64,000 bases of DNA from NCBI GenBank assembly GCA_965202785.1, contig OZ241855.1, forward strand, positions 1,579,465 through 1,643,464. Reading direction: 5' to 3'. The notes below the pieces were generated by a model, which was not told the DNA's origin, searched no databases, and saw only the letters and a list, made by a program, of their open reading frames with translations. Below, piece after piece: positions 261 to 54,956 of this stretch (position 1 is the first letter of the stretch; each line of letters starts with the position of its first letter). The position numbers and the translations under genes are program-made. Source of the DNA: Thermodesulfobacteriota bacterium (lineage in GTDB: Bacteria > Desulfobacterota_D > UBA1144 > Nemesobacterales > Nemesobacteraceae).

Positions 261-1487
261 ATGAGGGTTTGGCGGCTCCTCCTTATATGCATAGGGATTA
301 CGGTCATTATACTGATTGCGAATGAGGTAAAGGCGCATGAACTCGATAATCATCCGGCTGACAGCATAGTCGCATCCCAAGTAGACCAGAACAACGAGGA
401 GCAGGTAAGAGCGCTACTGGAGCATCTTTCCGCCCACTGGACGGGCATGGTCGTGGACGAAGGATATACCGTTGACTCCTTGCTTGCCTTCAGAACCATC
501 CTCAGAATGAAAGCAGGACCATGGGCAAGCGATGACTTGTACGTAATTCGGTTGAACTCAACTGAAAGCGACATAACCATTCACCCTTACCACCCGGCCG
601 GGCAGAGCGGAAGACTTGACGACCCCGCAGGTATTGGACAAAGCCTTGCAGACAAAGCCACGGCCAACCCGGGAGAGATCCAATGTTCTCCCTACGCTCT
701 CGATGGAGAGCAAAGAGTCGCCTGCGCGATCAGCAACCCATTTTCCGGGAGAGGCATGCCCACCATAGGAACATTTATGGCAGGTTTTCACCATACCTTT
801 GAGGATATAAACTTCGATCATATAGTGTGTCCAGAGGCTAACCCCAAGGTTACAGCGGCCGACGTGGTGGATGACGAGACCCTTGAGGACTTCGTAAGGG
901 AAGCGACCTCTTACTTCCTGCCCATACTGCTAAGTGGAGATGCGCTTGTAAACCGTATATGCCTTAGAAGGTTCCCCTGGATAGATGGCCCCATATACCT
1001 GTTCAGGTCAGCTGTCGATTCGGGACAGGTTATCTTCCACGGAATATCCCCAGAGCTTGAAAACAACAGCTTCGCAGACCTCCGGGACCAGGCAGGCACC
1101 CTGATAGCAAGCCTCTTGAGGGAAGAGGCAAGATCCCAATCACCTTTGGAAGGCGGATTTGTGGAGTACTACTGGGACGACCCTACAACCCCTGATGACG
1201 ACCTTGACGTCACCGACCCCGAGGTTTGTCCTACAGGCCCAAAGACATGCGCAACGGGAACGAGTTTGAAAAGGACATTCATTATTTCCATTCCCAAAGA
1301 GCTGTCTGGCCTCGGGGATGATATGTTCATGGCAGCCGGAAGGTATATCGAGGAAGAGTCAGAGGGCGGATGCAGCCTTACACGCGATGGGAAGAAGCCC
1401 AGCCCCCTCAGCTACCTCATAGCCCTGCTTTTCATAGGTGGGATCCTAGCTGTCAGTGTAACTGTAAAAGGAGAAACCAATGAATGA
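261..1487 (+). CDS. secreted protein with two Cache-like (sCache_2-type) units and a C-terminal GC-TM anchor
   Basis: Signal peptide (VKA|HELDNH); Cache-like segments IYLF..GQVIFHG..LRDQAG..GFVEYYWDDP; tail EGGCSL..LSYLIALLFIGGILAVSV; paralogue at 52795-53550. Confidence 0.7.
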   Translation: MRVWRLLLICIGITVIILIANEVKAHELDNHPADSIVASQVDQNNEEQVRALLEHLSAHWTGMVVDEGYTVDSLLAFRTILRMKAGPWASDDLYVIRLNSTESDITIHPYHPAGQSGRLDDPAGIGQSLADKATANPGEIQCSPYALDGEQRVACAISNPFSGRGMPTIGTFMAGFHHTFEDINFDHIVCPEANPKVTAADVVDDETLEDFVREATSYFLPILLSGDALVNRICLRRFPWIDGPIYLFRSAVDSGQVIFHGISPELENNSFADLRDQAGTLIASLLREEARSQSPLEGGFVEYYWDDPTTPDDDLDVTDPEVCPTGPKTCATGTSLKRTFIISIPKELSGLGDDMFMAAGRYIEEESEGGCSLTRDGKKPSPLSYLIALLFIGGILAVSVTVKGETNE

Positions 1488-17954: not shown

Positions 17955-18031
<77 letters not shown>

Positions 18032-52441: not shown

Positions 52442-52794
52442 TTCATTTTCTCCGCAGAGTCCAAGTGGGATTTTTTTGTATTTTACCCGAACAACAGCAA
52501 AAACCCACGAACCCCTGCGTGGAATCCAAGGCTATTTCATGTTAAAAAGCGATACCGGGACGATAGCGGGGAAGAAACAATTTCTCGAAACCATGCGTGT
52601 GCCGGGAAACGAACCTGATGATCCTCTCGGCAGCCGTCATGCAGACGCCACTGTTTACGTTTTTACGGAATTAAGATGCCCGGGAAAGACATCCGTCTGA
52701 CCCGGTGACAACAAAACTTAAACAGCGTAGGAGCGGAGAGGCCGTAATATTCCCCTCTCCCCCGCTATCGCTCGCAGTTGCAGCCGTGCGCAGG

Positions 52795-53550
52795 TTATCT
52801 TCTGACCGTGTGGATTTTCCACGAGACCGCCAGAGACAGGGCGGATACCACTAAAAGCAGGTTAAACAGCGAACTGAGGCCATTTTTTCCAGTGGTTCCT
52901 CCCGCGATCGCGCATCCATCATCACCATCATCCATCATCGGTTCCGACAACGGGGTCGGGTAAAAACCGGAACCTAACAGAAATGTTGTTGATTCACCAA
53001 GAAGAGTTACTTTTTCAACATAGCCGACTTTATCGGAAGAACCAGGTGTTTTCCCGGTTTCATTCACTTCGTCCCCTTCAAATCTTGGATCATCCCACGT
53101 ATACTCGGCAAAACCATCTCCATCTACTGCTTCTAGAAGTTCATGAACGACCTCTAATCCGTTAGCATCTGTCATTCCATGCAGGTCAAGGCCCTCTCTT
53201 TGTGGATAGATTGCGTTGAAAACAGCTACCTCTTCGTGCTCATGTTCTGTGGTTACATCTGTAAATATATACAGGTATATACTACGCTCGTGCGCAATCC
53301 AATCTCCCTCCTCGTTTCTAAATCCGCTTAGGAGAATGAGAAGATCTTGAATATGCGTAGCCTCCTCAATATGAGCTTTCGCATGCATAACGAAATTTCT
53401 CAGAGCATCTCTGTTTTCCTCATTGTCAACACCGTTCATTACGGCACCGGCCAAGGTCGTGTTTTGATGATTCCCACCATGCGCAAAAGACGGAACAGCG
53501 ATAAAACCGCTTACCAGAACCAGGACTGCAGTCAAGAAAAATCCCTTCAT
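52795..53550 (-). CDS. secreted protein with one Cache-like unit and a C-terminal GC-TM anchor
   Basis: GAGGAGG SD, ATG at 53550; signal peptide (SFA|HGGNH); IYLYIF..MTDANG..GFAEYTWDDP..KVGY; tail DGCAIA..SLFNLLLVVSALSLAVSWK..RR. Confidence 0.75.
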   Translation of the reverse strand: MKGFFLTAVLVLVSGFIAVPSFAHGGNHQNTTLAGAVMNGVDNEENRDALRNFVMHAKAHIEEATHIQDLLILLSGFRNEEGDWIAHERSIYLYIFTDVTTEHEHEEVAVFNAIYPQREGLDLHGMTDANGLEVVHELLEAVDGDGFAEYTWDDPRFEGDEVNETGKTPGSSDKVGYVEKVTLLGESTTFLLGSGFYPTPLSEPMMDDGDDGCAIAGGTTGKNGLSSLFNLLLVVSALSLAVSWKIHTVRR

Positions 53551-53738
53551 AAGTCTATCCCTCCTCAAGAATCCGTTGTTTTGTCAGAAAGTAATACCAA
53601 CCGTTACGTCCTTATAATAACACATGATGTAAAGTTTCGCCTTCAAGTGCTCAATCAGGATTAATTCCCGGGAACCGGACAAGCCAGCCAGCTCAAAAAC
53701 GGCTCAATTTGATTGACTTCATATAAAAAAGCGGATTA

Positions 53739-53766
53739 TTGACAGAAAGACCAGAATAATTATATT
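53739..53766 (+). promoter_or_regulatory. sigma70 promoter of the metK operon
   Basis: TTGACA-16bp-TATATT, 23 nt before the ATG. Confidence 0.55.
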
Positions 53767-53789
53767 ACTTGGACTTTTGAGGTCGCTTA

Positions 53790-54956
53790 ATGCCCCCTAA
53801 AAACTTCATATTCACCTCGGAATCCGTAACGGAAGGCCACCCGGACAAGATTGCGGATCAGATATCAGACGCCATACTCGACGCCATGATCGAGCAGGAT
53901 CCCGATAGCAGGGTCGCGTGCGAGACACTGATCACAACAGGCCTCGTGGTGATTTCCGCCGAGATAACGACGAAAAGCCATGTCGACATACGGCAAGTAG
54001 CAAGAAACACGATAAAAGAGATCGGCTACACGGACAGCGCGATGGGATTTGACGCGGACACTTGCTCCATCATGTTGACGATTGACAAGCAGTCCCCTGA
54101 TATAGCGCTTGGGGTCGACAAGAAAGGTGCCGAGGAGGAACAAGGTGCCGGGGACCAGGGACTCATGTTCGGCTACGCGTGCGATGAGACCGAAGAATTC
54201 ATGCCCTCCCCCATACTCTACGCCCACAGGCTGGCAAAACGTCTTTCCGAGGTAAGAAAAGACGGCACCCTTCCCTTTTTAAGGCCCGACGGAAAAAGCC
54301 AGGTCACCTTCAGGTATGAAAACGGGGAGCCGGTGGGAGTAGACGCGGTAGTTATATCATCCCAGCACTCAAAGGAAGTCTCGCGCGATGACCTCATCGA
54401 GGGAATCAGGGAGAGCGTAATAAATCCCTGCATTGGAACACTTGTTTCCGAGAACACGAAAATTCATATAAATCCCACGGGCAACTTTGTAATCGGGGGC
54501 CCCATGGGAGACACGGGACTTACGGGAAGAAAAATCATAGTCGACACCTACGGTGGATGGTCACGACACGGCGGCGGGGCTTTTTCGGGAAAGGATCCTT
54601 CCAAGGTCGACAGAAGCGCGGCCTATATGGCAAGGTACGTGGCGAAAAACATAGTCGCGGCCTCTCTGGCCTCGCGCTGCGAGGTGCAGCTTGCCTACGC
54701 CATCGGAGTAGCGGAACCGGTTTCGGTAATGATCGACGCCTTCGGCACGGCCGCTGTGGCGGAAGAGAAAATCTCGGAAGCAGTGAGGGAGATTTTCGAT
54801 CTTACCCCCGAGGGAATAATATCGCACCTCGGACTCAGAAGACCCATCTACAAGGAAACAGCTTCCTATGGCCATTTCGGGAGAAACGAAGAAACTTTCT
54901 CATGGGAGAAGACAGACAGGATAGCGGAACTTAAAAAAGCCCTGGAGAACGCCTGA
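53790..54956 (+). CDS. metK: S-adenosylmethionine synthetase
   Basis: [28 protein letters not shown]. Confidence 0.98.

Follow-up and report, generated by a model that had tools for sequence, protein, structure and literature searches.

In prokaryotes, Cache is described as the largest of the extracellular sensor domain families, and it is treated as an input module of signal transduction. Two genes for Cache-like proteins that have a signal peptide and no signaling domain lie in a 64,000-nucleotide stretch of DNA from a Thermodesulfobacteriota bacterium (assembly GCA_965202785.1, contig OZ241855.1, positions 1,579,465 to 1,643,464), which is referred to here as the window and forms the terminal 64 kb of one 1,643,464-base contig. 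The genes are called W1 and W2 (Table 1). Both open reading frames (ORFs) exist as given in a preliminary description that was made from the letters of the window, with W2 on the minus strand by direct reading. W1 and W2 each stop 6–7 residues past a sole C-terminal helix. The proteins thus have no signaling output, as had been noted at the outset, and the layout of a Cache receptor, in which two transmembrane helices flank the domain and a cytoplasmic output follows, is found in neither of them.

W2 is read from the ATG at position 53550, which is common to its orthologues; an upstream TTG at 53568 would give six extra residues. The end of its signal peptide, PSFAH, is conserved in 7/7 orthologues, and the one Cys of the whole protein is located in the tail. 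Six sequence motifs reported as shared by W1 and W2 are all present in both: LEDFVREA and LRNFVMHA, W..IYLF and W..IYLY, RDQAG and TDANG, GFVEYYWDDP and GFAEYTWDDP, GTSLKRTF and GSSDKVGY, and AGRY and SGFY, respectively. Only the fixed three-residue gap assigned to W...IYL was wrong, the actual gaps being four versus six residues.

Table 1. Features of W1 and W2, followed by other genes named in the text. Positions are those of the window unless prefixed with G000:C1, which refers to the genome.
Feature	Position	Strand	Remarks
W1 gene: exported two-unit Cache-like protein with C-terminal sorting signal	261..1487	+	408 amino acids (aa); intact ORF
W1 signal peptide, aa 1-25	261..335	+	Predicted cut after V-K-A, His26 first; read by eye
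W1 conserved His cluster, aa 26-60	336-440	+	Sequence comparison
W1 unit 1, aa 42-177, diverged Cache/PDC-like	384..791	+	Structure alignment; Tyr94 and His108 retained
W1 unit 2, aa 201-368, canonical sCache_2	861..1364	+	Structure alignment; pocket Tyr246, His260, Tyr303, Lys337
W1 C-terminal tripartite sorting signal	1365..1484	+	GGC371, 13-residue spacer, hydrophobic helix, KGETNE; tail hidden Markov model (HMM) E 7.7e-17
W2 gene: exported sCache_2 protein of one unit, sorting signal as in W1	52795..53550	-	251 aa
W2 signal peptide, aa 1-23	53482..53550	-	Cut after S-F-A predicted from the sequence, His24 first
W2 conserved His cluster, aa 24-60	53371-53481	-	Sequence comparison
W2 sCache_2 module, aa 44-197	52960..53421	-	Foldseek; pocket Tyr92, Asn112, Tyr150, Lys174; H56-x3-H60 on helix 1
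W2 C-terminal tripartite sorting signal	52798..52932	-	DDGDDGC213, spacer, helix, KIHTVRR; tail HMM E 1.7e-20
CPBP/Rce1-family protease	G000:C1:1029213-1029815	-	201 aa; sole PF02517 gene of the genome
Type II secretion secretin and GspE-type ATPase genes, side by side	G000:C1:1076239-1078494	+	Frames of 844 and 561 aa, respectively

Kinship and Fold

W1 and W2 are paralogous, as had been claimed, and their relationship is distant. Direct comparison by BLASTP is weak, with 30% identity across 61 residues (E 3e-5) and a second segment at E 0.002. Kinship beyond chance follows from other comparisons. Both proteins pass the gathering cut-off of 25 for the Pfam family sCache_2 (PF17200), W1 at 26.3 bits and W2 at 29.7 bits, and both belong to an eight-member paralogue network of the genome whose links have E values of 1e-8 to 1e-22. 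With a profile of the W2-like family, solved sensor domains of sCache_2 type are matched as well (2qhk, E 8.8e-22; 4k08, 3.5e-18; 5g4y, 9e-15; TlpB, 1.2e-8). Finally, AlphaFold2 models of W1 (predicted local distance difference test score, pLDDT, 88.7; predicted template modeling score, pTM, 0.79) and W2 (pLDDT 82.6, pTM 0.73) have sCache_2 chemoreceptor domains as their top structural matches in Foldseek (4k08, 4exo, 2qhk, 5g4y, and TlpB).

For the W2 module, the matches to 4k08, 4exo, 2qhk, and 5g4y have E values of 4e-7 to 2e-5 and target template modeling scores of 0.60–0.75. VIA-align resolves both units of W1: residues 201–368 align with 2qhk, 5g4y, 4k08, and 4exo at Z 15.0–15.9 and a root mean square deviation (rmsd) of 2.2–2.7 Å, and residues 42–177 align with the WalK/YycG extracellular PAS/Cache-like domains 5is1 and 4ywz at Z 10.9. 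The family profile matches W1 at aa 14–113, and His108 of unit 1 is invariant among 47 sequences. Pfam, the profile, and AlphaFold2 with Foldseek and VIA-align all give a Cache fold, in which N-terminal helices precede a PAS-like sheet that has a helix inserted, with two units in W1 and one in W2, in agreement with the preliminary description.

A dCache reading of W1 is not supported by superpositions, because dCache structures fitted to it by Foldseek have an rmsd of at least 15 Å over the whole model. VIA-align fits one W1 unit at a time, and in the AlphaFold2 model each unit has its own helix pair. W1 looks like tandem sCache units, although little weight can be put on how the two units of a model are oriented to each other. 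Neither whole protein has a meaningful match in NCBIfam. The ESM Atlas matches, all below 0.9 and serving as leads only, are short, automatically named Cache domain-containing proteins from Acidobacteriota and Thermodesulfobacteriota.

A C-Terminal Cysteine Signal on Diverse Cargo

The terminal helix with few residues after it is present as had been noted. It belongs to a conserved sorting signal and is not a plain anchor. The repeated C-terminal pattern begins with an acidic or Gly-rich stretch and G-C-[AS]-[ILV]; after about 10 further residues comes the helix, for example FNLFLIVSALFLAV, and the last part is basic. A tail HMM trained on 11 tails was run over all 4314 ORFs of the genome that are 80 aa or longer; 14 matched at E ≤ 7e-5 and the next best stood at E 0.45. 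Gly and Cys are invariant in 10/10 aligned tails, and Cys371 of W1 is nearly invariant among 47 relatives. The tail-bearing cargo is diverse and includes a Spondin_N protein, a 2081-aa fn3/cadherin/He_PIG protein, two Big_2/fn3 proteins of about 950 aa, and the Cache-like family. A Cache-like domain stands directly ahead of the tail in 12 of the 14 proteins, namely the eight paralogues and four adhesin-like proteins. Tail matches occur in 24/24 congeners (1–34 each) and in 6/16 other genomes of the order; among 153 family proteins, 78 have the Cys tail, which is at the C-terminus in 74.

A tripartite tail with an invariant Cys, MYXO-CTERM, has been described in Myxococcota with TraA as its prototype cargo (Haft 2023 preprint; Guo, Haft & Wall 2025). 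For Myxococcus, it is reported that tail cleavage by MrtX depends on the Cys and that the type II system takes part in bringing the cargo to the surface (PMC11980579). The tails of the present genome likewise have an invariant-Cys motif, a transmembrane helix, and a basic cluster, and are carried by many unrelated exported proteins. By analogy, the helix of W1 and W2 would be a cleavable-type sorting signal resembling MYXO-CTERM and not a plain anchor. Since a signal of this type is common to unrelated cargo, the mature protein is probably attached via the Cys and not via the helix. Unlike MYXO-CTERM, the tails occur in a Dadabacteria/Thermodesulfobacteriota lineage, have a longer spacer between Cys and helix (~10–13 residues), and sit mostly on Cache-like cargo. 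With the MYXO-CTERM model itself (TIGR03901), 4/13 tails match below the threshold, at 15.9–18.2 bits versus a cut-off of 20, and W1 and W2 have no match.

Among the other cargo, the Spondin_N protein with a Cys tail is encoded at G000:C1:364594-365538 on the minus strand (Pfam E 1.3e-40). Spondin_N is chiefly familiar from proteins of the animal extracellular matrix. The two Big_2/fn3 proteins are paralogues of 951 and 957 aa with 80% identity (G000:C1:10596-13451 and 355810-358683), each with Big_2/fn3 domains, a Cache-like domain, and the Cys tail.

Several related proteins contain two full precursors in one frame: P0007, P0013, P0014, and P0020 (866–894 aa), from related genomes and metagenomes, and also G014:C4:685307-692753. 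The first half consists of a signal peptide, two Cache units, and a Cys tail with its basic cluster. It is followed by another helix that resembles a signal peptide, a further pair of units, and another tail. Judged from this order of parts, such a precursor could be processed into two surface proteins.

Candidate Protease and Secretion Genes

The product of the sole CPBP gene has readable EExxxR, FxxxH, and HxxxN motifs (EEFFFR, FALAH, and HFVAN). Its five best and 7/8 best matches in NCBIfam are Mrt* myxosortase models. The scores are 78 for MrtP (cut-off 250), 71.2 for Mrt_core NF040914 (100), 63.5 for MrtS (130), and 58.9 for MrtC (195), and MrtX, MrtJ, and MrtZ also match. It differs from the myxosortases in its short length and in its Mrt_core score. 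Type II secretion genes are a further likeness to the myxosortase system, and the secretin/GspE pair lies ~12 kb upstream of the gene for the 2081-aa tail-bearing fn3/cadherin protein. An exosortase was looked for in the genome and not found.

The protease is present as one copy in 23/24 congeners and is found in 10/16 other genomes of the order. Outside the genus, 6/6 tail-positive genomes have the protease and 0/6 protease-less genomes have a tail match. This co-occurrence of tail and protease is consistent with a sorting model, and because kin genomes are not independent it is no proof of one. By analogy with the myxosortases, the CPBP protease is a candidate sorting enzyme for the Cys tail.

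The Family at Large

An index-free search with W2 gave 237 representatives at E ≤ 1e-3, 82 of them at 1e-10; the domain results below cover the best 150 of the 237. A word-index search with W1 gave one other cluster (48% identity), the index being too coarse for this fast-evolving family. Pfam models for HAMP, MCPsignal, HisKA, HATPase, GGDEF, EAL, and cyclase domains match none of the best 150 representatives (0/37 and 0/113). Continuation into kinase or methyl-accepting chemotaxis protein (MCP) domains, which would have marked W1 and W2 as truncated receptors, is therefore seen in none of them. A search restricted to longer proteins yielded four matches, 0/4 with an output domain, which combine Cache with Autotransporter and Big_2.

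Cache-family models match 32/37 representatives; in the further 113, dCache_2 matches 93 and sCache_2 matches 80. By Pfam assignment, the partner domains (Autotransporter, Por_Secre_tail/FlgD_ig, fn3, He_PIG, LRR, PKD, cadherin, and DUF4397) all represent surface-display or adhesin contexts. In autotransporter passengers, 4–7 Cache units stand in tandem before the barrel. Other members, classified by eye and matched by no model, have a lipoprotein-like N-terminus and end after the last strand, or have PEP-CTERM-like or dockerin-like ends. The database names of members are generic only, such as "T9SS type A sorting domain-containing protein" (T9SS, type IX secretion system) and "cache domain-containing protein".

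Orthologues of W2 are found in seven metagenome-assembled genomes titled Thermodesulfobacteriota bacterium or Candidatus Dadabacteria bacterium. They have the same length and lie between metK and rpe in 7/7 loci, one of them (L040) with an apparent frame break in translation. Their identity is 57–73%, versus 82–98% for two neighboring genes.

These results bear on the idea that W1 and W2 are remnants of chemoreceptor or kinase genes, either truncated receptors or pseudogenes. The nearest solved relatives are all chemoreceptor sensor domains, in line with such an origin, but the idea is already contradicted and retains only a very slight probability. Both reading frames are intact, with a conserved sorting signal at their ends that is common to unrelated cargo, the W2 orthologues keep length and locus in 7/7 genomes despite the one apparent frame break, and 0/150 relatives have an output domain. 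Moreover, downstream of W1 there is only a 66-aa ORF, followed by clpB on the opposite strand. The evidence favors W1 and W2 as complete proteins in their own right.

Ligand Pocket and N-Terminal Histidines

The PscD sensor domain binds C2 and C3 carboxylates via Tyr90, His103, Tyr143, and Lys156, and these four positions are reported to be conserved in the sCache_2 seed alignment (PMC5062169). By profile alignment to 5g4y, the equivalents are Tyr-His-Tyr-Lys in W1 unit 2 and Tyr-Asn-Tyr-Lys in W2 (residue numbers in Table 1). Among 289 family domains, 199 span all four pocket columns, with YHYK in 73, YNYK in 79, and YHYR in 12. The pocket appears to be under constraint, since the four residues are retained as YHYK or YNYK in 152/199 domains. 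From this conservation we infer that a small ligand, most likely carboxylate-bearing, is bound in the Tyr-His/Asn-Tyr-Lys pocket.

A second conserved feature lies at the N-terminus. As read from the sequence, the signal peptide ends A-x-A|H in 7/8 paralogues, so that the predicted mature N-terminus is His. A second His 3–9 residues after the N-terminal one, and FVxHxxxH on helix 1, are likewise found in 7/8 paralogues. Among representatives with a signal-peptide-like N-terminus, A-x-A|H occurs in 39/61 tail-bearing versus 5/57 tail-less proteins. The His-cluster pattern is retained in 7/7 W2 orthologues and is missing from the tail-bearing cargo that does not belong to the Cache paralogues. 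The cluster is confined to Cache proteins of the tail-bearing subfamily and may bind a metal or cofactor.

Such a site could also belong to nutrient or metal capture proteins that pass their ligand to TonB-dependent transporters (SusD-, TbpB-, or hemophore-like), with the His cluster as the binding site. The predicted N-terminal His with the helix-1 HxxxH, and the higher frequency of A-x-A|H in tail-bearing relatives, agree with a partnership of this kind. Moreover, 2/8 paralogues adjoin two of the genome's seven TonB-dependent receptor genes (G000:C1:181530-185767 and 741884-746181), c181 being 267 nt upstream of one and c744 divergent from another. However, 0/29 related loci have a receptor within their 1.5-kb flanks, including seven c181 orthologues (64–70% identity), and W1 and W2 are flanked by housekeeping genes (W1 by proS and clpB, W2 by rpe and metK). 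Because the adjacency is kept in 0/29 related loci, delivery to TonB-dependent transporters is demoted to a rival explanation and considered improbable.

Expansion and Genomic Context

From the two copies in the window, the family had been guessed to be expanded. The guess was right and understated, as the genome has eight paralogues and four adhesin-like proteins with the same domain. The expansion is lineage-specific: the family profile matches 21/24 congeners, with 3–36 domain matches each, and 2/16 other genomes of the order, and in a sample of the phylum family matches occur in 32/35 congeners versus 9/84 other genomes. Three complete congeners are without any family match. These proteins have almost no signaling partners in the genome: a profile search of its 1.64 Mb gave MCPsignal 0, GGDEF 0, and HisKA 3.

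YycH and YycI modulate WalK in trans, and the Cache-like proteins could in the same way act as co-receptors, influencing a membrane sensor once they have bound a ligand. Of the roles offered in the preliminary description (ligand scavenger, adhesin, decoy, or co-receptor in trans), this one is now judged the least likely because of the counts just given. The Cache fold with an intact pocket, the resemblance of W1 unit 1 to the WalK extracellular domain, and the presence of three histidine kinases would suit it. Conversely, 8–12 Cache-bearing proteins face three HisKA genes and no MCP or GGDEF gene, and 0/8 paralogues have a sensor kinase as immediate neighbor. In other lineages, T9SS tails and autotransporters carry the domain past the outer membrane, out of reach of inner-membrane sensors. 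A co-receptor function is thus unlikely, and binding without signal transduction, as preferred here, accords better with this gene content.

Runs labeled as sponge metagenomes (X3, X4, and X8) contain contigs with a 90–99% identical W2 locus (window 52500-53800), one of them 15 kb long at a depth of 473. The W2 copies in these runs vary by in-frame length changes within the acidic linker ahead of the Cys. A sponge habitat of close relatives is a lead only.

Some of these observations would also fit a structural or adhesive coat, in which Cache serves as a scaffold or stalk with no small ligand and mediates attachment to host matrix or particles. The domain is directly ahead of the tail in most tail-bearing proteins, including the fn3/cadherin/Big_2 giants, and reaches seven tandem units in autotransporter passengers. 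It evolves fast relative to neighboring genes, and close relatives occur in the sponge-labeled contigs. Against this stands the pocket, whose retention argues for selection on ligand binding, and the 251-aa single-unit form has no other part to adhere with. A purely structural role is consequently rather doubtful, and ligand binding remains part of the explanation favored for W1 and W2.

Two further observations concern genomic context. Paralogue c617 (G000:C1:617031-619507, minus strand) is found 480 nt downstream of a channel gene of the AmiS/UreI family that has the same orientation; according to structure entry titles, the solved TlpB sCache_2 domain binds urea and small amides. The sole Rfam match of the window at the gathering threshold is one tRNA gene at 17955-18028 on the plus strand.

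W1 and W2 as Probable Surface Binding Modules

The explanation that we favor, with confidence somewhat better than even, is that W1 and W2 are complete, exported, non-signaling sCache_2 proteins that are surface-displayed as binding modules. Export would occur first, by the Sec route, and the tripartite Cys signal would hold the precursor in the inner membrane. The CPBP/Rce1-type intramembrane protease, the only one of the genome, would then remove the helix, by analogy with MYXO-CTERM and myxosortase. At the surface, the Cache module would bind its small ligand in the Tyr-His/Asn-Tyr-Lys pocket, most likely a carboxylate-bearing one, and the proteins would serve the capture of a solute or adhesion without transducing a signal. 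The nature of this ligand and the part that the proteins play in the cell are both putative.

Several points weigh against this explanation. No tail exceeds any curated sorting-signal cut-off in NCBIfam (0/13), and for this reason the signal is classed as a new variant outside MYXO-CTERM. The CPBP protease is under every Mrt cut-off, so strict membership of the MYXO-CTERM system is not established. The genome also has one rhomboid protease gene, as have 14/14 control genomes; because of it, a rhombosortase-like enzyme may take the place of the CPBP protease. Cleavage, lipidation, and surface exposure are what we infer from the analogy with MYXO-CTERM, and the proteins of this lineage may instead be periplasmic and membrane-tethered. 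In the pocket, Asn takes the His position in W2 and 79/199 domains, and W1 unit 1 is without the second half of the pocket, which makes carboxylate binding an extrapolation. No conserved neighboring gene hints at function, and the survey of output domains is one of the best 150 of 237 representatives.

A broader proposal is more tentative and, as a whole, rather less likely to be right than wrong. The proteins could represent an undescribed class of non-signaling surface Cache binders, each displayed on its lineage's own anchor (Cys, T9SS, autotransporter, or PEP-CTERM-like). They might be the main cargo of a new Cys-CTERM/myxosortase variant in sponge-associated Dadabacteria. An added metal or cofactor site, formed by the mature N-terminal His, the second His, and HxxxH, would make them dual binders of metal and small ligand.

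Comparison With Known Systems

The domain is a member of sCache_2, and the architecture of the protein is that of no known Cache receptor. W1 and W2 share the Pfam family, the fold, and the pocket positions with the sCache_2 domains of chemoreceptors, such as PscD-SD (5G4Y), Adeh_3718 (4K08), the Vibrio parahaemolyticus MCP (2QHK/4EXO), and H. pylori TlpB (3UB6). Unlike these domains, W1 and W2 are not placed between two transmembrane helices and are not followed by HAMP, MCP, or kinase domains. They have instead a free N-terminus after a cleavable signal peptide and a C-terminal sorting signal, and the units of the family may stand alone, follow one another in tandem, or come after domains of adhesin type.

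In the "choice-of-anchor" families of NCBIfam, a given extracellular domain is combined with sorting signals that differ between lineages. The Cache domain is similar in this respect, as it occurs with the Cys tail, the T9SS tail, and the autotransporter barrel, and by eye also with PEP-CTERM-like, lipoprotein-like, and dockerin-like ends. Unlike the established families, it is represented by no NCBIfam model of this kind that matches W1 or W2.

Stand-alone Cache proteins have been described for sCache_heme (DUF3365/Tll0287), an arrangement that the report calls highly unusual for Cache (Deshpande et al. 2026 preprint). As in sCache_heme, the Cache domains of the present family are mostly without signaling modules. 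However, an sCache_heme identity was rejected for W1 and W2, which have no CXXCH motif and no DUF3365 match at E ≤ 1 in Pfam, retain the pocket, and bear surface anchors.

The same preprint gives more than 90% of Cache domains as fused to signaling modules (Deshpande et al. 2026). According to Upadhyay et al. (2016), every protein in which a Cache domain had been identified also had an output signaling domain, and the Cache models were built solely from such proteins. No description of surface-anchored, non-signaling sCache_2 proteins was found in the literature searched, with subscription journals and supplements outside its coverage.

Significance

Eight stand-alone and four adhesin-linked Cache proteins are kept in a genome of 1.64 Mb that has no chemoreceptors, and its congeners have up to 36 domain copies. 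If binding is confirmed, the proteins would be a new kind of surface binding protein whose small, soluble ectodomains suit ligand screening, and signaling capacity would be overestimated in genome surveys that take each Cache domain for a sensor. The tails and the CPBP protease would, in addition, widen the range of C-terminal sorting by a Cys signal, and of enzymes resembling myxosortase, to an uncultured lineage where current models do not detect them.

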